Notes under the pieces: model-generated | The model's database searches: none | Told to the model about the DNA's origin: nothing | What the model saw: only the letters and a program-made list of their open reading frames with translations | Program-made: the position numbers and the translations under genes | Shown: piece by piece, positions 5,437 to 26,973 of the stretch | How the letters are laid out: every line of letters begins with the position of its first letter | Position numbering within the stretch: position 1 is the first letter of the stretch | From: an uncultured Oscillospiraceae bacterium | GTDB taxonomy: Bacteria > Bacillota > Clostridia > Christensenellales > Aristaeellaceae | Direction: 5' to 3' | NCBI GenBank assembly: GCA_964584315.1 | Contig: CAZOZO010000001.1 | Location: 84,225-148,224 of the forward strand | DNA: 64,000 nucleotides

Positions 5437-6507
5437 TCAGGTGTTGATGATATCAGCTTTTTGAGCTTCTTTCAAGTGCTGGTTGCGAAGTTGGCCGCAC
5501 GCGCCCGCAATGTCCGCGCCCATTTCGCGGCGCACGGTGGCGGAGACATGCAACGCCTCCAGCGTATCCAGGAAGGTTTGCACCGCGCGCGGCGAGGCGG
5601 GCGCAAGACTGCGCTCGTCCACACGGTTGAGCGGGATCAGGTTGACGTGGCACTGCAGGCCGGAGACGAGGTGCGCCAGTTCCCGCGCATGAGCCGGGGT
5701 ACTGTTGAGCCCGTCGATCAGCGCGTACTCAAACACCACGCGGCGGCCCGTCTGCTTCACATACTCGCGCACGGAGGCCATCAGTTCGCCAATGGGGTAG
5801 CGGCTTGCGATGGGCATGATGCGGCGGCGGATCTCGTCGTTGGGCGCGTGCAGCGAGATGCTCAACGTGATGGGCAGCCCCTCGCCCGCAAGCTGGCGGA
5901 TGCGGGGCACGATGCCGCAAGTGCTGACCGATATGGCGCGCAGGCTGATGTTGAGCCCATCCGCATGGTTGATGAGGCGCAGGAAACGCACGACGTTCTC
6001 ATAGTTGTCCAGCGGCTCGCCGCTGCCCATGAGCACAACGTGGCTTACCTTGCCTGCTACGCCAAGGTAGCGGTTGGCCAGCAGCACCTGCGCGAGCATC
6101 TCGCCCGCGCTCAGGCTGCGAACACAGCCGTTGAGCGTGCTGGCACAGAAGGCGCAGCCCATTTTGCACCCCACCTGGGTGGAGATGCACAGGCTGTAGC
6201 CGTAGTGGTACTGCATCAGCACGCTTTCGACGATGTTGCCGTCCGCGCAGGCATTGAGGAATTTGACGGTCTTGTCCTTTTGCGAGGGGAAGCTCTGGTG
6301 CAGGCGCAGGGGCAGGTCATAGGCCTTGGCTGCAAGCGTCTCGCGCAGGGTTTTGGGCAAGTTGCTCATGTCTATGAAGCTTACGCCGCGGTGCAGCCAC
6401 GTAAAGATCTGCCTGGCACGGAAAGCGGGCTCGCCAAGCTCCGTGAGGAACGCGCCGAGCTCCGCCATGTCCATATCGAGCAGAATGGGTTTGTCCGCCA
6501 TGGTCAT
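5437..6507 (-). CDS. rlmN: 23S rRNA (adenine2503-C2)/tRNA dual-specificity radical-SAM methyltransferase RlmN
   Basis: 356 aa, radical SAM CxxxCxxC (CKMGCAFCAST), C-terminal catalytic Cys region. Conserved position downstream of rsmB. Confidence 0.88.
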   Translation of the reverse strand: MTMADKPILLDMDMAELGAFLTELGEPAFRARQIFTWLHRGVSFIDMSNLPKTLRETLAAKAYDLPLRLHQSFPSQKDKTVKFLNACADGNIVESVLMQYHYGYSLCISTQVGCKMGCAFCASTLNGCVRSLSAGEMLAQVLLANRYLGVAGKVSHVVLMGSGEPLDNYENVVRFLRLINHADGLNISLRAISVSTCGIVPRIRQLAGEGLPITLSISLHAPNDEIRRRIMPIASRYPIGELMASVREYVKQTGRRVVFEYALIDGLNSTPAHARELAHLVSGLQCHVNLIPLNRVDERSLAPASPRAVQTFLDTLEALHVSATVRREMGADIAGACGQLRNQHLKEAQKADIINT

Positions 6508-9158
6508 GCCCTCGCCTTGCGCATGCGCGCGATGAAGAACCCCTCCACCCCGTCGCGGTGCGCGAACAGCTGCAAACCGCTCTCCGTGTACTGACTGCGG
6601 ATGTCCTCGGGGTAGGTGGCGGGCAGCGGCGCGAGGCTGAACTCAGGATGCGCCGCGAGGAATGCCTGCACCTGTTGCGCGTTTTCCTCCGGCAGGATGG
6701 AACAGGTGCTGTACACCAGCGTGCCGCCGGGCTTCACATAGGCGCACAGGGTATTGAGCAGTTTCTTCTGGTTCTCCACGATGGGCTCGATGTCGGTCTC
6801 CTTCAAGCGGTACTTGAGATCCGGCTTCTCAGTGAGCACGCCCAGCCCGGTGCAGGGCGCATCCAGCAGCACACCGTCCATCATGCCGTCAAAATCGGGC
6901 TTGGGCTCGGCCGCGTCGCGGATAGAGATGCGCAGGTTTTCCAGCCGCAGGCGGCGCTGGGCGGATTCCAGCAGCAGTGCGCGCTTCTCGTGCAGCTCCC
7001 AGGCGAATACGCGGCCCGTGTTCTGCATGGTCTCGGCCATATAGCAGGCCTTGCCTCCGGGGGCCGCGCATGCATCCAGCACGCGCATGCCGGGCTTCAC
7101 CTGCATGACCTCGGCGGCCAACATGCTGCTCTGCCCCTGAATGGAGAAGTTACCGTCGCGATAGTCGTTATCCAGCGCGATCTCGCTGGCACCGCCGATC
7201 AGGTAGGCGTGCGGGGCCAGCCCGCGCCGCCACGACCATGCCTTGGTGCTGAGCAGCGCCTCAAAGGCCTCGTCGCTGAACTTCATCATATTGGGGCGCA
7301 GCACCATGTCGTGGCTCTGCCCGCGGTGCATGATGATCTGCTCCGCCAGTTCCTCGCCGTAGGTAGCGGTCAGTTTGTCGACCAGCCAAAGCGGCGCGCT
7401 GCCCATGATGTGCAGATAGTCGCGCAGGCCGTCCTCCCGCTTGGGCCAGGGAATCTCGTCCTTGCCGCGCACAAGGTTGCGCAGCACGGCGTTCAGGAAC
7501 CCTGCTGCACCCTCCATGCCCAGCGCGCGCGCAAGGTTTACACCCTCGTTGACGGCGGCACTGTCCGGCACGCGGTCGTGGAAGAGAATCTGGCAGGCGC
7601 TCAGCCGCAGGATATCGCGTTGCATCGGCTCGCTGGTGGGGTGATCCATCAGGCGATCAAGCGCGAAGTCGATCTGTATCTGCTGCTCAAGCGTGGAATA
7701 GACGATGCTGGTGGTGAGCCTGCGATCCGCGGGGGAGAGATGCGCCTTGGTGAGCCGATCTTGCAAAGCAAGAGAGGCATAGGCACCGCGCTCGTGCACG
7801 TCGCGCAGCACATCCAGCGCCACGCGGCGCGCGCCCGGCGTCAGGCCTGTGCGCTCGACAGGCTCAGCAGTATCCCGGAAGGGCTTGCGCTCACCGGCGC
7901 CAAAACTGGGCGCAGCCTTATAATCCCGGCGCTTGGTCATGCCATAACCGCCAGCGGGCCTGAAGGGGCGGCGCTCGCCATCACCGGCAGGGGTGTAAGG
8001 ACGTTGCACACCATCACCAGCGGGACTGAACGGACGACGTTCGCCGTTACCGGCGGGACTGAAATGACGGCGCTCACCGTCACCAGCGGGCCTGAGGGGG
8101 CGGCGCTCGCCATCACCGGCAGGCCTGAATGGACGGCGCTCACCATTATCGGCGGGATTGAAAGGACGACGCTCGCCATCACCAGCGGGCTTGAAGGGGC
8201 GACGTTCGCCGTTACCGGCGGGATTGAAGGGGCGACGTTCGCCGTTACCGGCGGGATTGAAAGGACGACGCTCACCGTCACCAGCAGGCCTGAATGGACG
8301 ACGTTCGCCGTTACCGGCGGGATTGAAAGGACGGCGCTCACCATCGCCAGCAGGTCTGAAGGGACGGCGCTCGCCATCGCCAGCAGGCTTGAAGGGGCGA
8401 CGTTCGCCGTTACCGGCGGGACTGTAAGGACGACGCTCACCATCGCCAGCGGGCTTGAAGGGGCGACGTTCGCCATCCCCAGCGGGCTTGAAAGGACGGC
8501 GTTCACCATCACCAGCAGGTCTGAAGGGACGGCGTTCGCCATCGCCAGCGGGCTTGTAAGGACGGCGCTCGCCGTTACCGGCAGGATTGAAAGGACGACG
8601 CTCACCATCACCAGCGGGCCTGAACGGACGACGTTCGCCGTTGCCAGCGGGACTGAATGGACGGCGCGCGCCATCGCCAGCGGGCTTGAAGGGGCGACGC
8701 TCACCATCGCCAGCGGGCTTGTAAGGACGGCGCTCGCCATCGCCAGCGGGCTTGAAGGGGCGACGTTCGCCGTTACCGGCGGGACTGTAAGGACGACGCT
8801 CACCATCGCCAGCGGGCTTGTAAGGACGGCGCTCGCCATCGTCAGCAGGTCTGAAGGGACGTCGTTCGCCATCGCCAGCGGGCTTGAAGGGGCGACGTTC
8901 GCCGCTACCAGCGGGACTGTAAGGATGTCGTTCGCCATCGCCAGCGGGCTTGTAAGGACGGCGCTCGCCATCGCCAGCGGGCTTGAAAGGCCGACGTTCA
9001 TCCGCGCCTGCGCCCCCTGCCGGTCTGCCGTAAGGCCGTTCGCCACCGTCGGCTCCGGCGGGCCGATAGGGCCGCTTCTCGCCTGCATTGTAAGGTTTAT
9101 GCCCCTGATAGCCGCCCTTGCCGTCGCGCCCGCCCCTGTGGTTGCCCTGATCGCTCAT
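6504..9158 (-). CDS. rsmB: 16S rRNA (cytosine967-C5)-methyltransferase RsmB/Sun with ~400-aa N-terminal Pro/Gly/Arg/Glu-rich tandem-repeat extension
   Basis: C-terminal ~450 aa carry a NusB-like domain (ARRVALDVLRDVHERGAYASLAL) and a SAM-MTase/NOL1-NOP2-Sun core (LDACAAPGGK, DAPCTG, TLVYSTCS). N-terminal ~400 aa are ~33 copies of PAGDGERRP[FY][KRSN]. ATG at 9158 overlaps the fmt stop as ATGA. An in-frame alternative Met near 7940 would give a canonical-length RsmB. Confidence 0.75.
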   Translation of the reverse strand: MSDQGNHRGGRDGKGGYQGHKPYNAGEKRPYRPAGADGGERPYGRPAGGAGADERRPFKPAGDGERRPYKPAGDGERHPYSPAGSGERRPFKPAGDGERRPFRPADDGERRPYKPAGDGERRPYSPAGNGERRPFKPAGDGERRPYKPAGDGERRPFKPAGDGARRPFSPAGNGERRPFRPAGDGERRPFNPAGNGERRPYKPAGDGERRPFRPAGDGERRPFKPAGDGERRPFKPAGDGERRPYSPAGNGERRPFKPAGDGERRPFRPAGDGERRPFNPAGNGERRPFRPAGDGERRPFNPAGNGERRPFNPAGNGERRPFKPAGDGERRPFNPADNGERRPFRPAGDGERRPLRPAGDGERRHFSPAGNGERRPFSPAGDGVQRPYTPAGDGERRPFRPAGGYGMTKRRDYKAAPSFGAGERKPFRDTAEPVERTGLTPGARRVALDVLRDVHERGAYASLALQDRLTKAHLSPADRRLTTSIVYSTLEQQIQIDFALDRLMDHPTSEPMQRDILRLSACQILFHDRVPDSAAVNEGVNLARALGMEGAAGFLNAVLRNLVRGKDEIPWPKREDGLRDYLHIMGSAPLWLVDKLTATYGEELAEQIIMHRGQSHDMVLRPNMMKFSDEAFEALLSTKAWSWRRGLAPHAYLIGGASEIALDNDYRDGNFSIQGQSSMLAAEVMQVKPGMRVLDACAAPGGKACYMAETMQNTGRVFAWELHEKRALLLESAQRRLRLENLRISIRDAAEPKPDFDGMMDGVLLDAPCTGLGVLTEKPDLKYRLKETDIEPIVENQKKLLNTLCAYVKPGGTLVYSTCSILPEENAQQVQAFLAAHPEFSLAPLPATYPEDIRSQYTESGLQLFAHRDGVEGFFIARMRKARA
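7950..9010 (-). repeat. ~33 tandem copies of a 36-nt unit (in-frame, encoding the 12-aa repeat PAGDGERRPF/Y-K/R/S/N) inside the rsmB 5' region
   Basis: Direct reading shows near-identical consecutive 36-mers (e.g. gggcgacgttcgccgttaccggcgggattgaag repeated back to back at ~8195-8266). Unit length is a multiple of 3, so copy-number change preserves frame. Confidence 0.85.
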
Positions 9159-14496: not shown

Positions 14497-15890
14497 TTAT
14501 GGCCTGGTGAGCGTCAGGTTTCGCACCCAGGTTCCCTTGCGCAGCACGCGCAGGGCCAGCACGATCTTCGCGTTCATGAGCGTTTGCACGATCAGCACCG
14601 CCAGCAGCATGGAGATTTTGCCGGGCATTAGCAGCGCCATCAGGATGCAGACCGGCACGGGCACGGCCCACATGAAGCCGCTGTCCAGCAGCGAGGCGTT
14701 GCGCGTGTCGCCGCCCGCTCGAAGAACGAAGAAGCAGAACGCATACAGGAAGTTGACGGGCGCAAACAGCGCCATCACACAGCTGATGCGGGTGGCCAAC
14801 CCTTTCATGTCGACGCTCAGGTTGTAGAGGTTGGGCAGGATCAGCGCCAGAATGCAGCAAAGCGCCATACTCACCAGCCCGATGATAAATGTGAGCGTGA
14901 ACAACTTTTTACAATGGTCACGCGCCTTGTCCAGCTCGCCCGCGCCCAGCGCCGTGCCAATCAGCACCGATATGGCGGAAGAGCTGCCCATGATGATGAC
15001 CGAGGATACCTGCATGCACAGCTCCGCGATGGCCAGCGCGGGCAAGGCCGATTCATCCAACCGCGCATAGCACCAGAAGAAGATGTTCAGGCCGAAGCTG
15101 TACAAAAGCTCGTTAATGATCAGCGGCATCGCCTTGCCTGCGAGCTGTTTGCGCACGCTGCGGTCCAGCCGCAGGCACGCGCCGGGTTCGAAGCTGAAGT
15201 ACATGCGGCCCCGGAGCATCAGCACGACATAGAAGCTCATCTCAAACAGGCGCGCGATCAGCGTTCCGTAGGCCGCGCCCGCAACACCCAGGCGGGGCAT
15301 GCCAAAGTTGCCAAAGATGAGCGCATAATTGCACAGCGCGTTCACGCCCATGCTGGCGAGGCTCACCATCATGCTGGCGCGGTTTTGCCCCAGCGAGCGC
15401 AGCGAGAACACGCACGCGCTGCTGATGGCCGCCGGAAAGTAGCTGAAGCTGATCACGCGCATGTAGCTCACGCCAAGCGCGATGGTCTGTGGGTCGGTCA
15501 CGTAGATGCGCATGATGGCTTCCGGCACGCCAAAGAGGAGAGCGAAAAACACCGCTGCGTTGAGCACCGCCAGCGCCATCTGCGTCCAAAAAATGCCCAT
15601 GCATGACTTGCGGTCGCGCGCGCCATAATACTGGCTGATGAGTAGGCCGCCAGCGCCCGCCAGACCGAAGATAAAGCCGTTGAAGATCATCACCGGCCGA
15701 TTGGCGACGGTCACGGCGCTCATGGCGAGGCCCTGCACATCCAGCGCCCCCACCATCAGGTTGTCGATAACGTTGAACAGGTTGTTAACAAGCTGCTGCA
15801 CCGTCACGGGCAGCATGACGGCCAACGCCCCCTTGTAATAGCTCTTTGTGCCGAGGTAGGGGCCGATGGCCGTTCGCAGGCGCTGCATGG
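14497..15890 (-). CDS. MATE family efflux transporter
   Basis: 12-TM protein with MatE hallmarks (PVTVQQLVNNLFNVIDNLMVG...). The ORF track extends to 15978, but ATG at 15888-15890 has RBS GAGGGGA 6 nt upstream and gives a typical MATE N-terminus (MQRLRTAIGPYL). Confidence 0.8.
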
Positions 15891-21206: not shown

Positions 21207-21240
21207 CCGCCGCCCGACCCTTACGGGTCGGGCGGCTTTT
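21207..21240. terminator. bidirectional rho-independent terminator between convergent pckA and ABC exporter genes
   Basis: aaaa-ccgccgcccgaccc-ttac-gggtcgggcggc-tttt: perfect 12-bp GC-rich stem, 4-nt loop, flanked by A4/T4. Confidence 0.85.
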
Positions 21241-21437
21241 CAGTTGCGTTAAAGGGATGTGGAATGCAGGCGGCGCGGAGTGCAGGCTGGTTTCCTTCCC
21301 TGCCAACAGCAGGGACATGGGTCTACTGCGCGAACGTGCGCCATTCGTTTGTGCATCGGTCACTGCTGGTTCTACCGAACAAACATCCGCGCTTTCGCTT
21401 GTAGTACGAAAGAGCGGATGCTGTACATTGTGTTGTC

Positions 21438-23651
21438 TCAATATACGTTTGTGGCGCTGGCAGCCTCGGTGCTCTCCAGCAGTTGCCGCGAAGCAAGTTC
21501 GTAAAACGCGCCGCGTTGGCCAAGCAGTTCCTCGAACGTGCCGCTCTCCACGATACGTCCGCCATCCAGCACGATGATGCGGTCACACTCGCGAATGGTG
21601 GATAGTCGGTGCGCGATCACCACGCGGGTGCATTTGAGGGCGGCCAGCGAATCTGCCACCTGCTTTTGGGTGATGTTGTCCAGCGCGCTGGTGGCTTCGT
21701 CCAGCATCAGGATGCGCGGCTTGGCTGCCAGCGCGCGCGCGATCATCAGCCGCTGGCGCTGCCCGCCGGATAGGCCGCCCCCGCCTTCAGTGATCACCGT
21801 GTACATGCCCATGGGCATGTCCGAAATATCCTGATCCAGCCCCGACAGGCGTGCGATCTCCCACGCATCCGATAGGGTGAGCGCGGGATTCGCGATGGCG
21901 ATGTTGGAGAAGATATCGCCCGCGAACAGCTTGCCGTTCTGGATCACCACGCCGATGCGGCGGCGCAGCGAGCGCAGGTCGATACGGCTCAGGTCGATGT
22001 TGTCGTAATAGATGGCGCCTTTGCGCGGGTTTTCAAAACCCATCATCAGTCGCATGAGCGTGGATTTGCCGCAGCCTGTGCGCCCCACGATGGCTACATA
22101 CTCGTGCGGCTTGATCTTGAGGCTCACGTCGCTGAGCAAGTCGGGGCCGTTTTCGTCATAGCGGAAGCTCACATGGCTTAGCTCGATCGCACCGCTCACG
22201 TTATCCAGCACGGTTTTGCCCTCGTCGGTCTCCGGCACGGCCGCGAGGATGGGTTCGGCCATTTCCAGCTGGGGCTTGACGCTGGCGAACGTGGTGGTCA
22301 GGGTGGTGAGCGACAGGAGCGCCGCGCCGATCATCCCGTACGATACGCTGAAGGCCATGTAGTCGCTTACCGACACCTTGTTTTGCACCGCGATGTAATA
22401 AAACGCCAGCGTGCCCACCAGCGTGAGCGCCATGTTGGTCACGCTCACATAGCGCAGGATGCGCGGGGGCGCATAGGTCATCTTTGCCTGCTTCTGGTAG
22501 AGCTCCGCCCACTTGGCGAAGCCGCGCTTCTCCGAGCCGGTCAGCTTGATCTTCTGGATGCCGGAGAACAGTGCAAACACGAGACCGCCCAGCTTGGCGC
22601 CCACGGCCATGGAGGCACGCTCATGCTTGAGACCGGCCCACGCGGCCAGCATGTTCAGCAGCACCTGTGCCAGCACCAGAAGCATCGCAGGCCCTACCAG
22701 TGCGCCTGCGAACGAGCCGATCTGGAACAGGTAGATGAGCGAGAGGATTGCCGAGAGCAGTGTCCCCGTAACGGCGTTCACCAGCTGGTCGCACAGGTTG
22801 CTGAGGGCGGCCAGGCGGCTGGCCAGCTCGCCGCTGCTGTACTGCTTGAAGAAGGTGGCGGGCAGCAGCAGCATACGCGCCATGGCTGCCGGCTCCACCG
22901 CCAGCTGGATGCGTGTGGTGATGCGCCTTGACAGAAAGTTGCGCGTGGTGGATAGCATGGCCGTGCCGATGGCGAAAGCCACGAGCATGCCCAGCGTGGG
23001 CAACAGATAGCTTTGGTTGCCGGAGGGGATGACCGTGCCAAACAACAGGCGGTTTACAGCGGGGGTAAGCAGACCAAACAGCGTCACCAGCAGCGAAACG
23101 CCCGTATACAGCGCCATGTCGCCCGCAGAAAGCGCCGCAGCCATATATTTGAGCAAATCGCCAATGCCCATGCGCGATGCGGGGAACGGGCGATAGAAGC
23201 AATACGCATCGTCGTCCATCAGCTCGGCGCGGGCACGGGTCACACGCTGGCGTTCGCCGGTGAAGGGGTCGATGTATTCGTAGCCCGAGAAGGGCAGCGG
23301 GAGCAGCGCGATCACCTCGCCGCTCTTGAGCGAGCCCAGCATGGGACCGATGGCGTCGCGATACCACGCGCCTGTCAGGCGCACACGGCGCTTCATCACA
23401 CCGGTGGGGCGCAGGGCGAAGTCGAGGTAGGCGTCCAAGTCCTCGGCGGTGTCGGGCACCGTGGTCAGCGGGATGAGGAAATAGCGGAGCACCTCGTCTA
23501 CCGCGTTTTTGACGCGCTGGCGGTCGTTTTGGAACCGTTCGCCAAAACGGTCGCCCATGATGACGGACGCCAGGCTGCAAAACGCCATGTCGAAGCGGTC
23601 GCGATCTTTGCGCATCCGCTCGCGCAGCTGTTCGTCAAACCAATGGCTCAT
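21438..23651 (-). CDS. bacteriocin-type ABC exporter (permease+ATPase) with N-terminal degenerate C39-like domain (CLD)
   Basis: 737 aa: ~165-aa cytoplasmic N-domain whose C-terminal half resembles papain-like C39 (GEVIALLP...YIDPFTGERQRV...AYCFYRPFP) but lacks the oxyanion Gln and catalytic His; 6-TM exporter domain; NBD with GRTGCGKST, LSGGQRQR, LMLDEATSALD, IAHRLST. Confidence 0.85.
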   Translation of the reverse strand: MSHWFDEQLRERMRKDRDRFDMAFCSLASVIMGDRFGERFQNDRQRVKNAVDEVLRYFLIPLTTVPDTAEDLDAYLDFALRPTGVMKRRVRLTGAWYRDAIGPMLGSLKSGEVIALLPLPFSGYEYIDPFTGERQRVTRARAELMDDDAYCFYRPFPASRMGIGDLLKYMAAALSAGDMALYTGVSLLVTLFGLLTPAVNRLLFGTVIPSGNQSYLLPTLGMLVAFAIGTAMLSTTRNFLSRRITTRIQLAVEPAAMARMLLLPATFFKQYSSGELASRLAALSNLCDQLVNAVTGTLLSAILSLIYLFQIGSFAGALVGPAMLLVLAQVLLNMLAAWAGLKHERASMAVGAKLGGLVFALFSGIQKIKLTGSEKRGFAKWAELYQKQAKMTYAPPRILRYVSVTNMALTLVGTLAFYYIAVQNKVSVSDYMAFSVSYGMIGAALLSLTTLTTTFASVKPQLEMAEPILAAVPETDEGKTVLDNVSGAIELSHVSFRYDENGPDLLSDVSLKIKPHEYVAIVGRTGCGKSTLMRLMMGFENPRKGAIYYDNIDLSRIDLRSLRRRIGVVIQNGKLFAGDIFSNIAIANPALTLSDAWEIARLSGLDQDISDMPMGMYTVITEGGGGLSGGQRQRLMIARALAAKPRILMLDEATSALDNITQKQVADSLAALKCTRVVIAHRLSTIRECDRIIVLDGGRIVESGTFEELLGQRGAFYELASRQLLESTEAASATNVY

Positions 23652-23665
23652 ATTCGCGCACCCCC

Positions 23666-25816
23666 TCAGTTCATGGAGACGAGCTTCTGATACAACCCGT
23701 CTGCCTCGGCAAAGAGTTGCGCGTGCGTGCCGCGCTGCACCACGTTTCCGTGGTCGAGCACCAGTATCTCGTCGCAGTCGCGGATGGTCGAAAGCCGGTG
23801 TGCGATGATCACGCAGGTAATGCCGCGGTCGCAGATCGCCTTGACCAACTCCGCCTCGGTCTTGGCATCCAAGGCGCTTGTAGCCTCGTCCAGAATGGCG
23901 ATGGTGGGGTCGAGCGCGAGGGCGCGGGCGATGTCGATGCGCTGGCGCTCGCCGCCGGAATAGTTTTTGCCACCCTCGGCCAGCATGGCGCGGTAACCGC
24001 CCTCGCGGGAGAGGATCATGTGGTCGATCTGCGCGTCGTGCGCGGCCAGGATCATCTCAAAATCGGCGATGGTGTCGTCCCACATCTTGATGTTGGCGGC
24101 GATGGTATCTTCAAACAGCGTCACGTCCTGATCGACCACCGCGACCGAGCCAGTGAACACCTCATGCTCGATCTGCTCGATGGCTTGGCCATCGAACAGG
24201 ATCTCGCCGCTCCAAGGCTTGTACAGGCCGCTGAGCAGCTTGGCGACGGTCGATTTACCGCAGCCGCTCGCGCCCACCAGCGCCACGCGCTGGCCGGTTT
24301 TCAGCGACAGGGAGAAATCTTTGATCAGCGGTGCGGCCAACGGGTTGTAGCCGAAGGTCACGTTCTTGATCTCCACATTGCCGCTCAGCTTGCGGTAGGT
24401 GCGGGTATCATCGTCCGGCGAGGCGGCGGGGAAGAGGTCGGGCTGGTAGTCCATCACGTCCTGCACACGCTCCATGGTGGCGCGCAGCAAGCCCATCTCC
24501 TCGCGCAGGCTACGCAGGGTATCCACCGGCCCCATGAAAGCGGCCAGAAAGCCCTGGAACGCGAACAGCATGCCTACCGTGAACGACCCGCCCATGATGA
24601 GCGCCGCGCCCACGCACAACACAAACACGCCGGAGAGCGAGCCCATCAACGCCGCGAGGCTGCCAAGGTACCCGTCCAGCCGCGCGCTTTTGACCGATGC
24701 GGCGTTTACGCCCGCGTGGTAGCCGGCCCATTTTTGGAAGTAACCCTCCTCTGCGCCGGAGGACTTGATGGTCTCGATCATCTCCACGCCGCTGAGCGTG
24801 GTGGCCTGAAGCTTGCCGGAGAGCATCATGGTGGCCCGCGTCAGGTTGAGGCGCTTTTTGGCCACATAGCCGGAAATCAGCAGGTTCAGCGCTGCGCAGG
24901 CAAGGCCGATCAGCGTGAGGGGGATGCTGTAGCCCAGCATGACCGTAAGGTAAAACACCAGCATGGCCATATCCAGCACCAGCGGCGCGAGGCGCTCGAA
25001 AACCGTGGCCGCGATGCCCTCGTTGGCCTGCTGGCGCATGGCGATATCGCCCGCCAGCCGCGCCGAAAAGAAGCGGATAGGCAGCCGCAGCACCTGCCAC
25101 ATGAACGATCCGCTGGCGATGATGGCGAACTTGCCGGAAATTTTCAGGTTGTAGTTTTGCGAGATGGCAGCGACCACCGTTTGCATCACGATAAAGGCGG
25201 AAAACAGGTAGACGAAGGGCATGAGCCACTCCGGCCGCGCGCCGGTCAACAGGCTGTCTAAAAAAACGCGGCTGAACAGCGGCGCCACCACGCCCAGCGC
25301 CGAGGTGAGCAGGCTCACCAGCAGCACAAAGGCGATCAGTCCCGCGGAGCCCTTGAGCCGCTGACGCACAAAGCCCAGCACGCTTGGGCGCCTGCCCTCG
25401 CGCACAAAGGCCTCGGTGGGCTCAAACACAAGCGCAACGCCCGTGTAGGCGTTGTCGAACTCCGTGAGGGGCACCTGTTCCAGCCCGGTGGCGGGGTTGT
25501 TGATGATGGCTTTGCCACGGCGGAAGCCGCACAGCACCACGAAATGGTTGAAGTTCCAATGGATGATACACGGCATGGGCGCCGTGCGCAACTCCTGCGG
25601 CTCCAGCCGGTAGCCTGCGGCCTTGAGCCCGTAGCGCCGCGCTGCGGCCACAATGCTCTTGGCGCTGCTGCCGTCGCGGCTCACGCCGCAATCCTCGCGC
25701 ACGGTCTCCAGCGGCAGCCATTTGCCAAAGTGGGCAAGCACCATGGAGAGGCTTGCCGCGCCGCATTCCACGGCCTCCTGCTGTAAAATGGTGGGGGTGA
25801 GCACGACCTTGCTCAT
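23666..25816 (-). CDS. peptidase-containing ABC transporter (PCAT): C39 bacteriocin-processing peptidase + permease + ATPase
   Basis: 716 aa. N-terminal C39 domain with an intact catalytic set: Q..ECGAASLSMVL (Gln/Cys), NHFVVL (His), INNPATG. 6-TM domain. NBD with GASGCGKST, YSGGERQR, ILDEATSALD, IAHRLST. Confidence 0.88.
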   Translation of the reverse strand: MSKVVLTPTILQQEAVECGAASLSMVLAHFGKWLPLETVREDCGVSRDGSSAKSIVAAARRYGLKAAGYRLEPQELRTAPMPCIIHWNFNHFVVLCGFRRGKAIINNPATGLEQVPLTEFDNAYTGVALVFEPTEAFVREGRRPSVLGFVRQRLKGSAGLIAFVLLVSLLTSALGVVAPLFSRVFLDSLLTGARPEWLMPFVYLFSAFIVMQTVVAAISQNYNLKISGKFAIIASGSFMWQVLRLPIRFFSARLAGDIAMRQQANEGIAATVFERLAPLVLDMAMLVFYLTVMLGYSIPLTLIGLACAALNLLISGYVAKKRLNLTRATMMLSGKLQATTLSGVEMIETIKSSGAEEGYFQKWAGYHAGVNAASVKSARLDGYLGSLAALMGSLSGVFVLCVGAALIMGGSFTVGMLFAFQGFLAAFMGPVDTLRSLREEMGLLRATMERVQDVMDYQPDLFPAASPDDDTRTYRKLSGNVEIKNVTFGYNPLAAPLIKDFSLSLKTGQRVALVGASGCGKSTVAKLLSGLYKPWSGEILFDGQAIEQIEHEVFTGSVAVVDQDVTLFEDTIAANIKMWDDTIADFEMILAAHDAQIDHMILSREGGYRAMLAEGGKNYSGGERQRIDIARALALDPTIAILDEATSALDAKTEAELVKAICDRGITCVIIAHRLSTIRDCDEILVLDHGNVVQRGTHAQLFAEADGLYQKLVSMN

Positions 25817-25824
25817 ACGCCCGC

Positions 25825-26013
25825 TTACCCGAAAATGAGACCGACGAGGTTCACATCGGTCATGGAGAGGAACACGACCATGGCGACCATCGCCAGCGCC
25901 ACAGCGCCCAGCGCCAGCCAGATGCCGGTGGGCACCACCTTGATGGTATCGTTGAGCTGATCCGGTGAGGTGACGCGCTCAATGGCACTCTTGCGGAAAA
26001 GTTCCTGATTCAT
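25825..26013 (-). CDS. 62-aa membrane-anchored microprotein resembling only the N-terminus of HlyD-family bacteriocin secretion adaptors
   Basis: MNQELFRKSAIERVTSPDQLNDTIKVVPTGIWLALGAVALAMVAMVVFL...GLIFG*: cytoplasmic LFRxxAxE...SP(D/E)QLD motif plus one TM helix, then a stop. RBS AGGAG 9 nt upstream; first gene of the operon, 9 nt before the PCAT start. Confidence 0.55.
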   Translation of the reverse strand: MNQELFRKSAIERVTSPDQLNDTIKVVPTGIWLALGAVALAMVAMVVFLSMTDVNLVGLIFG

Positions 26014-26087
26014 AGGTCATGCTCCTTACGCGGCCTCTGAGCGCCGCGTGTTATTCGCTTGTGGAACCGTCCTTACACCGTTTGACC

Positions 26088-26116
26088 CATTATATACCGC
26101 CGCGTTTGGCCGGTCA
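26088..26116 (-). promoter_or_regulatory. sigma70-type promoter for the microprotein-PCAT-ABC operon
   Basis: Minus strand: TTGACC (26111-26116) - 17 nt - TATAAT (26088-26093). ~65-nt leader containing a 7-bp hairpin (acgcggc...gccgcgt) just 5' of the RBS. Confidence 0.6.
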
Positions 26117-26250
26117 AGGAAAACTCAAGCCAATTCTCATGCTATTCTCATCAAACCATTAATCGTCTCTCAAGCATCTCATCAAGAAGCGTGTTATTCT
26201 ATGCACGTAAACAAGCCAACCACCCAAGAGACATAAGGAGGAACCCTACG

Positions 26251-26544
26251 ATGGATACCAACCGGCAGCGCGATAACGGCTTCTTCAGCAAAATGTACCG
26301 CACCCGTTTCAGGGCCAGCAAGAACGGACAAACGGTCGTAAACCTCTCGCTTCTCTTCTCGCTGATCGCCCTGCTCAGCGCCCCCTGGCTGGTGATCCTG
26401 GGCCTGATCGCCGCCCTGCTGATGGGCTACCGCTTCTCCATGGAGAAGGATGGGCTGGGCTTTGAGCAGAGCTTCGACGATGTGGTGCGCAACGCCGCGG
26501 GCAACGTAAAGCACGCTGTGGAGAGCTTCACCGAACAGCACTGA
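26251..26544 (+). CDS. small membrane protein, DUF4342-like (paralog A)
   Basis: 97 aa from ATG 26251 (RBS AAGGAGG). YRTRFRASKNGQTVVNLSLLFSLIALLSAPWLVILGLIAALLMGYRF: charged N-segment, K-x-G, then one long hydrophobic helix. Family assignment from memory of the DUF4342 pattern, not a search. Confidence 0.6.
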   Translation: MDTNRQRDNGFFSKMYRTRFRASKNGQTVVNLSLLFSLIALLSAPWLVILGLIAALLMGYRFSMEKDGLGFEQSFDDVVRNAAGNVKHAVESFTEQH

Positions 26545-26631: not shown

Positions 26632-26973
26632 ATGGAAAACAACACTGCGAACAACAACGGCAAGACCGGTTTCTTCAGCCTTCTGTACCGCACCCGCCTG
26701 GTCATCACCAAGGGCGATACCACCATCCTGAACCTCTCGGTGCTCTTCAGCGTGATCTCGCTGCTGTGCGCGCCCTGGCTGGTCGTGATCGGCGCGATCA
26801 TCGCGCTGGTGCTGGGCTACCGCTTTGCCATCGAGCGTAACGCCGCCGCCTTTGATAAGGACTTTGAGCATGTCGTGAAGGACGCGGCCAGCAACGTCAA
26901 GAGCGCCGTGGAGAACGTGACCGGCGCGCACCATGACGCTGGCAACGGCAGTGATACCGGCGCCCAGATGTAA
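26632..26973 (+). CDS. small membrane protein, DUF4342-like (paralog B, tandem duplicate)
   Basis: 113 aa, RBS GGGAGG; ~50% identical to paralog A over the core (YRTRLVITKGDTTILNLSVLFSVISLLCAPWLVVIGAIIALVLGYRF). Gly/Asp/His-rich C-tail. Confidence 0.6.
   Translation: MENNTANNNGKTGFFSLLYRTRLVITKGDTTILNLSVLFSVISLLCAPWLVVIGAIIALVLGYRFAIERNAAAFDKDFEHVVKDAASNVKSAVENVTGAHHDAGNGSDTGAQM

Follow-up and report, generated by a model that had tools for sequence, protein, structure and literature searches.

A probable double-glycine peptide export cassette with a 62-residue HlyD-like adaptor in an uncultured Oscillospiraceae bacterium

We consider a stretch of 64,000 nucleotides (the window; contig CAZOZO010000001.1, positions 84,225 to 148,224 of the forward strand) from an uncultured Oscillospiraceae bacterium, and within it a cassette of three genes on the minus strand. 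The cassette is probably an operon for the processing and export of double-glycine peptides of the NHLP/Nif11 type, with its cargo genes located elsewhere. In the order of transcription it encodes a HlyD-like minimal adaptor of 62 residues (25825..26013), a peptidase-containing ABC transporter (PCAT) of 716 residues with C39, membrane and ATPase domains (ABC1, 23666..25816), and a partner ABC exporter of 737 residues that lacks peptidase activity (ABC2, 21438..23651). The gaps are 8 bp between the adaptor open reading frame (ORF) and ABC1 and 14 bp between ABC1 and ABC2, and a single operon is predicted. An earlier note on this DNA, made from the letters alone, had described a two-gene locus of tandem NHLP/Nif11-type ABC exporters. 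The type of exporter is borne out by family scores far beyond chance, but the gene count is not: the 62-residue ORF was missed, and the end given for the locus, 26116, lies in the -35 box of a promoter-like site (26117..26089) and not in coding sequence.

A three-gene cassette of this kind is defined in Haft et al. 2010 (PMC2887384) by a HlyD-like protein (TIGR03794), an ABC protein with a peptidase domain (TIGR03796) and an ABC protein without one (TIGR03797). When compared with the cassette of Haft, Basu and Mitchell, our locus has the same gene order, the same two ABC families and one subunit with a live peptidase, and its relatives likewise export Nif11-like double-glycine precursors. It differs in an adaptor of 62 instead of ~421 residues, which covers model positions 1-35 only, in having no NHLP/Nif11 precursor or maturase within the 64 kb, and in an Asn at the place of the triad Asp. 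Because the 62-residue ORF matches the N-termini of both TIGR03794 and the ~160-residue adaptors found in related loci, we take the locus to be the canonical three-gene cassette with a reduced adaptor. The earlier interpretation is supported; the system is one already catalogued and very common in gut Clostridia, and its reduced adaptor, a variant so far without annotation, has some mechanistic value.

The two ABC proteins

ABC1 scores 897.1 bits against TIGR03796 (cutoff 853.3, E 7e-270), with residues 7-713 aligned to model positions 2-709. With its score over the cutoff, a C39 domain and the partner genes adjoining, it is a member of this family. Pfam resolves the protein into Peptidase_C39, ABC_membrane and ABC_tran. 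The peptidase domain (PF03412, 115.5 bits) occupies residues 8-135 (25412..25795, minus strand) and holds Gln12, Cys18, His91 and Asn107. The complete Gln/Cys/His set that had been claimed for this domain is present: the motifs QQEAVECG and WNFNHFVVL are both located in the protein, and each of Q12, C18 and H91 is conserved in 95% or more of 83 aligned PCAT sequences. The third residue of the triad (codon 25496-25498) is Asn107, which replaces the Asp of the family N-D-P motif (here xNP). Asn stands at this position in all relatives of at least 80% identity (P0001-P0014), while Asp is kept at 71% identity and below. Papain carries Asn as its normal third triad residue, and for this reason we do not read Asn107 as an inactivation.

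ABC2 reaches 707.4 bits against TIGR03797 (E 2e-212), 2 bits under the cutoff of 709.4. This is its best family by 375 bits, the next one scoring 332.6 bits, and ABC2 lacks an active peptidase domain, as TIGR03797 proteins do. ABC1 and ABC2 both have a canonical Walker A, D-loop and H-loop, and a canonical Walker B that includes the catalytic Glu. The signature motif of ABC1 is YSGGE (codons 617-621, 23954-23968) where the wider family has F/LSGGQ, and the form xSGGE is common to all ABC1 relatives down to 60% identity. In line with the view that both ATPases look functional, Walker A, signature, Walker B and H-loop are all in place. The ratio of nonsynonymous to synonymous substitution (dN/dS), taken here and below against the Candidatus Limiplasma ortholog, is 0.15 in ABC1 and 0.19 in ABC2, values comparable with the 0.21 of the neighbouring gene fabH. 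Such purifying selection makes it probable that the system is at work on a cargo encoded elsewhere.

We turn to the N-terminal domain of ABC2 (residues 1-175; 23127..23651, minus strand), which is predicted to begin with two long helices and to continue as a C39-like fold without the catalytic Cys and His. A degenerate C39-like domain had been proposed here from the sequence IDPFTGERQRV...YCFYRPFP, which ABC2 does contain. At the level of sequence, similarity to C39 is not found: the Pfam C39 model has no match at E<=10 in the N-termini of 28 ABC2-type members and none in ABC2, a comparison by hhalign of a 70-member ABC2 N-terminal alignment with the C39 domains of the family returns a probability of only 0.6%, and a profile search of PDB sequences with the ABC2 N-terminus finds nothing. 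At the level of fold the picture is different. An AlphaFold2 model of residues 1-185 was built on a three-sequence alignment, the database search with residues 1-180 having given only 3 usable proteins; its mean predicted local distance difference test score (pLDDT) is 68.8, and it exceeds 80 over residues 101-150, where most of the beta strands lie. The best fold matches of this model are the C39 domains of PCATs and the C39-like domains of the HlyB type, with 8DCK and 7SGR also among the matches; a Foldseek search gives this set independently (6mpz, E 8e-4; 3zua, E 1.2e-3; 3b79, E 2e-3). No Cys or His is invariant in residues 1-185 of the 28 members. From the fold matches together with the missing Cys and His, we hold with moderate confidence that the ABC2 N-terminus is a degenerate domain of the C39/papain-like fold, so that the earlier proposal stands for the fold and for the lost catalytic residues and falls for the sequence similarity.

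The 62-residue adaptor

The first gene of the cassette, with an AAGGAG Shine-Dalgarno sequence ahead of its ATG, encodes the protein MNQELFRKSAIERVTSPDQLNDTIKVVPTGIWLALGAVALAMVAMVVFLSMTDVNLVGLIFG. Its cytoplasmic N-terminus, with the motif LFRK..R.TSPDQLND.IKV, is followed by a single membrane helix and a tail of 11 residues that ends in LIFG. Against TIGR03794 it scores 18.2 bits (cutoff 156.2, E 9e-4) over positions 1-35 of the 421 in the model. Judged by this match, it is a derivative of the TIGR03794 N-terminus and not a member of that family of full-length (~421 residues) proteins. Residues 1-48 are 44% identical (E 1e-14) to the N-terminus of a 162-residue adaptor in an Oscillospiraceae genome (locus L002). 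That protein holds the same position upstream of its PCAT, and it aligns in its turn with the N-terminal portion of TIGR03794 (E 4.5e-13), most strongly over model positions 1-54.

Database clusters of the 62-residue protein number 26 at 66-100% identity, and 24 of them are exactly 62 residues long, the others being 69 and 52. In an alignment of 18 clusters, 29 positions do not vary; G is the last residue in every one, preceded by F in 17. This form goes with PCATs whose identity ranges between 97% and 60%, and it recurs where the genomic surroundings are unrelated (L085, L086, L087, L088, L093, L094). Its gene has a dN/dS of 0.32, and no residual adaptor sequence lies between it and ABC1. The fixed length, the shared tail, the range of PCATs, the selection and the lack of leftover adaptor sequence lead us to conclude that the ORF is not debris but codes for a small protein with a function. 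The clusters are unnamed or labelled 'hypothetical protein', and the ORF is sometimes not called at all, so genome mining based on the cassette would score these systems as incomplete. PADLOC gave no match for the small proteins of the locus, and searches of the literature gave no paper that treats the short Clostridial form of the adaptor.

To place this adaptor among its relatives, we compare 83 non-redundant loci. PCAT homologs run into the thousands; the homologs with a named source and the 80 fetched loci are overwhelmingly from Clostridia, largely from gut- and rumen-derived assemblies, and carry the NCBI name 'NHLP family bacteriocin export ABC transporter...'. The nearest species-level genome is that of a Candidatus Limiplasma sp. 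(PCAT 83% identical). A look-up of the exact PCAT sequence gave no record, and identical copies of the 62-residue protein came only from contigs shorter than 2 kb. Of the 83 loci, 76 have the order adaptor-PCAT-ABC2, and most of the exceptions are contigs cut at the adaptor position. In two Ruminiclostridium metagenome-assembled genomes (L034 and L036, ~15287-15778) the cassette is rearranged, with a ~160-residue adaptor gene ~1 kb downstream of ABC2 and not upstream of the PCAT.

Among the 76 adaptors, the residues beyond the membrane helix number 81-120 in 62 cases and at most 35 in 6. A profile of the 62-residue family collects 1430 representative clusters at E<=0.001; the best 150 of these include 89 proteins of 131-200 residues and 15 of at most 70, and about 6 of the short ones have the conserved tail. 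Judging from these lengths, the common Clostridial adaptor is one of ~160 residues, and a reduction to the membrane helix has taken place repeatedly. Independent shortenings are seen in L015, L044, L055 and L084. The Clostridia-wide form with the ~160-residue adaptor (for example in L002, L003 and L010) has an ABC1 56-61% identical to ours and the same adaptor motif and helix, but it keeps ~100 extracellular residues that are gone here and in L001, L085-L088, L093 and L094. Such a stepwise trimming, from ~421 to ~160 to 62 residues, would leave only the segment that touches the transporter in HlyB-HlyD, and it makes the 62-residue adaptor a simple genetic handle on the role of adaptors in bacteria without an outer membrane, such as those with Gram-positive bacteriocin exporters.

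Cargo and proposed mechanism

In the relatives, ABC2 is directly followed by genes for peptides whose Nif11-like leaders end in ...ELSDEELDNVAGG; these genes often form arrays of 3 to 11, and in some loci a radical SAM/SPASM enzyme accompanies them. One such precursor scores over the TIGR03798 cutoff (37.8 against 32.3 bits). A precursor match at E<=0.001 follows ABC2 in 33 of the 57 loci that have at least 3 kb of downstream sequence, and several further loci have short double-glycine leaders. Cassettes with the 62-residue adaptor are included: in L085 a single 87-residue peptide, ...ALSDEELGAVNGG/VVYG..., comes directly after ABC2, and in L094, which has a LytTR response regulator upstream, five peptides of the form MNEKTVTT..DDDLEAVTGG/... 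follow it. From these neighbouring precursor genes we therefore conclude that minimal-adaptor systems do serve double-glycine peptides. The relatives thus define both the expected cargo (Nif11-like or short double-glycine leaders) and its place (directly after ABC2), and the empty slot in our lineage is therefore a defined, testable gap.

Two groups of these peptides have unusual features. At L002 (14447-15741; Oscillospiraceae genome CP197208.1) the predicted cores are very short (CRW, CTWI, YNFSIGARAL and RIPYYRRSE) and look more like signalling peptides than bacteriocins. A 66-residue peptide of two Lachnospiraceae metagenome-assembled genomes (L013, 17648-17845; L028, 14758-14958) reads ...LKDVNGG/LLITPETKALSDDALDQVTGGG/RWNWDEPNGKRR, where the two successive double-glycine-like sites suggest a two-step processing or a duplication of the leader.

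Several observations weigh against the proposed export operon. The earlier statement that no precursor lies nearby can be extended to the whole 64 kb: a strict double-glycine regular expression and two leader hidden Markov models (HMMs), built from the precursors of the relatives and run in six frames, find none in the window (best HMM E-values 4 and 34), and the window has no maturase for ribosomally synthesised and post-translationally modified peptides either. No cargo gene stands beside the cassette in five syntenic Limiplasma-like loci. The DNA after ABC2 differs among these loci (pckA; a tRNA-like sequence and an alanine dehydrogenase gene; a GH125 glycosidase gene; an arabinofuranosidase gene), and no small ORF is conserved there. 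In addition, the clade-wide Asn in the triad and the YSGGE signature of ABC1 could each alter activity, ABC2 stays just below the curated cutoff of its family, and the structural model of its N-terminus rests on three aligned sequences at a pLDDT of 69.

Candidates for the missing cargo were considered and rejected. A 50-residue ORF after ABC2 in the Limiplasma genome (L001, ~14560-14650) is on the opposite strand and not conserved, and its call is probably spurious, as by eye it seems to overlap a tRNA-like sequence (GGTTCAAATCC T-arm, CCA end). In the window, a 35-residue ORF on the minus strand (21249-21356) has no double-glycine leader and lies in a region that is not conserved.

Precursors can reportedly lie far from the transport genes, and those of these families are dispersed in genomes such as that of Prochlorococcus, so that an empty neighbourhood would not be unusual. 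The cargo genes are most probably outside the window, elsewhere in the genome. Up to 29 precursors in one genome, often adjoining transport clusters, are described in Haft et al. 2010 (PMC2887384).

Combining this information, we can outline how the export operon may work. The promoter would drive the adaptor, ABC1 and ABC2 genes as one unit up to the terminator. The C39 domain of ABC1 would bind a leader ending in Gly-Gly and cleave after it, by analogy with PCAT1 and ComA, and ABC1 and ABC2, presumably as a heterodimer, would export the core peptide at the expense of ATP. The catalytically dead C39-like domain of ABC2 may dock the cargo or the adaptor, as the analogy with HlyB suggests. In a Clostridium with a single membrane the adaptor would have no outer membrane to bridge. 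In this clade it would be reduced to the cytoplasmic N-terminus with the membrane helix. In HlyB-HlyD it is through these two that the adaptor contacts the transporter, and the retention of exactly this portion fits the absence of an outer membrane.

The known structures help to locate this arrangement. PCAT1 works without an adaptor, as a homodimer whose two peptidases are both live, whereas our system would have one live and one dead domain on two polypeptides, plus a small membrane protein. With PCAT1 (Clostridium thermocellum) and the peptidase domains of LahT and ComA (solved structures 4RY2, 6V9Z, 6MPZ and 5XE8) it shares the C39-ABC fusion type that cleaves after Gly-Gly, and it is these domains that the model of the ABC2 N-terminus most resembles. 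HlyB/HlyD also has a catalytically dead C39-like domain on its ABC protein. In the HlyB-HlyD structure, as summarised in PMC11026475, acidic residues of HlyD contact the C39-like domain and its N-terminal region contacts membrane helices 1-2; the parts of HlyD that contact the transporter, its N-terminal cytoplasmic part and membrane helix, are those kept here. HlyB is however a homodimer in a two-membrane cell, acting with full-length HlyD and TolC on cargo with an uncleaved C-terminal signal, while here there is one membrane, no periplasmic adaptor domain and one live peptidase.

A bolder version would make the 62-residue protein an obligatory third subunit of a heterodimeric exporter, a minimal membrane fusion protein seated on the dead C39-like domain of ABC2, and would allow the Limiplasma-like clade, with its Asn in the triad, its fixed DUF4342 neighbours and its lack of adjoining double-glycine cargo, a cargo class not yet recognised. 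We regard it as quite unlikely; if true, it would show that in bacteria with a single membrane the HlyD-type adaptors have their functional core in the cytoplasmic N-terminus and the membrane helix.

Control region, neighbours and alternative readings

Upstream of the adaptor gene by ~75 bp lies a sigma-70-type promoter-like site, TTGACC-17-TATAAT (26089..26117, minus strand), which agrees with the consensus at 11 of 12 positions; the TTGAC and TATAAT boxes stay the same in four orthologous intergenic regions, at a coding dS of ~0.8. Just upstream of the -35 box is a direct repeat, ATGAGAAT-AGC-ATGAGAAT (26133..26151, minus strand). The form ATGAGAAT-N3-ATGAGAAT is kept in five aligned orthologous regions despite the near-saturated synonymous divergence of the flanking genes, and it may be the binding site of a regulator. 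At up to 3 mismatches it has a single match in the window, with at least one match in 18 of 100 shuffles; a second copy, sought as a mark of co-regulated genes, is found nowhere else in the window. At the other end, a GC-rich hairpin with an A-run on one side and a T-run on the other (21209..21236, read on both strands; 11 of the 12 base pairs of its stem are GC) lies between the stops of ABC2 and pckA and is likely a bidirectional terminator.

Divergently transcribed from the cassette are the genes of two paralogous small membrane proteins of the DUF4342 family (26251-26544 and 26632-26973, plus strand; Pfam PF14242, 34 and 39 bits). The pair adjoins the cassette in every Limiplasma-like locus seen, even in one with different outer flanking genes, and is absent from the other 80 cassette loci; the intergenic region between pair and cassette is highly conserved. 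The linkage is conserved, and the pair may have a functional tie to the cassette. The two proteins were also considered as cargo and rejected, as they have no double-glycine leader. The second of them, with '...VENVTGA', does come second among the matches of the short-leader HMM, but with no more than 1.3 bits and an E-value of 45; the motif is missing from its paralog and comes after a membrane segment.

The next question is which other readings could account for the cassette. The Limiplasma-like clade could have lost its double-glycine cargo and kept the pump for another job, perhaps one tied to the DUF4342 pair, such as quality control or export of some other cargo, or an efflux of the immunity type. 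The absence of an adjoining precursor in any syntenic Limiplasma-like locus, with unconserved DNA after ABC2, speaks for this, and three hints, namely the clade-specific change of Asp to Asn in the triad, the DUF4342 pair that stays linked where the outer flanks differ, and the highly conserved divergent intergenic region with its ATGAGAAT-N3-ATGAGAAT repeat, point to it but do not establish it. It is hard, however, to explain why Gln, Cys and His are invariant under purifying selection when there is no leader to cut; Asn is normal in the triad of papain; the DUF4342 adjacency, seen only in one narrow lineage, may be no more than inherited synteny; and the DUF4342 proteins have no double-glycine leader. 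We consider this loss of cargo unlikely, although it is the main rival.

Two further readings concern the identity of the genes themselves. The 62-residue ORF could be a decaying remnant of an adaptor that makes no functional protein, leaving the two ABC proteins as the working unit. Its 18 bits against the TIGR03794 cutoff of 156, its annotation as hypothetical or not at all, and several short homologs in the representative library whose random-looking tails suggest frameshifts would agree with decay. A decaying gene would nevertheless hardly be expected to show the uniform length in 24 of 26 clusters, the common tail and 29 invariant positions of the 18 aligned ones, the persistence from 97% to 60% PCAT identity in unrelated contexts, the dN/dS of 0.32, the Shine-Dalgarno sequence, the 8-bp spacing to ABC1 and the clean intergenic space, and we find this reading improbable. 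ABC1 and ABC2 could finally be ordinary lipid or multidrug exporters of the MsbA type with incidental N-terminal domains, a placement by HMM scores that the earlier note had named beforehand as the one to look for against its proposal. The generic exporter core does match MsbA-type models at ~288 bits, but this is far below their cutoffs of 602-867, while TIGR03796 gives 897 and TIGR03797 gives 707 bits; the scores leave the MsbA-like reading effectively refuted, with next to no probability. The clear C39 domain with its catalytic residues and the double-glycine precursors adjacent in relatives speak in the same direction. The export operon with remote cargo genes is the reading that we prefer.

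The window has a G+C content of ~62%, and the wider surroundings of the cassette are those of housekeeping genes. One flank of the cassette holds def, fmt, rsmB, priA, dacA, a MATE pump gene, dnaX, rsmA and pckA, the last convergent to the cassette so that the stop of ABC2 faces that of pckA; the other holds a GNAT acetyltransferase gene, a gene for a glycine-transporter-family protein, fabT and fatty-acid synthesis genes. Rfam has no match in the whole window. The gene of the rsmB/sun-type 16S rRNA methyltransferase (6504-9158, minus strand), a family assigned by eye from the translation and the position in def-fmt-rsmB, carries an N-terminal extension of ~430 residues. The extension consists of ~32 tandem copies of the 11-residue unit PAGDGERRPFK, encoded by a 33-bp DNA unit in an array at 7949-8999, where Tandem Repeats Finder reports periods of 66, 99 and 165 at 78-81% match. 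A plus-strand ORF of 915 residues across this repeat DNA is an antisense shadow ORF.

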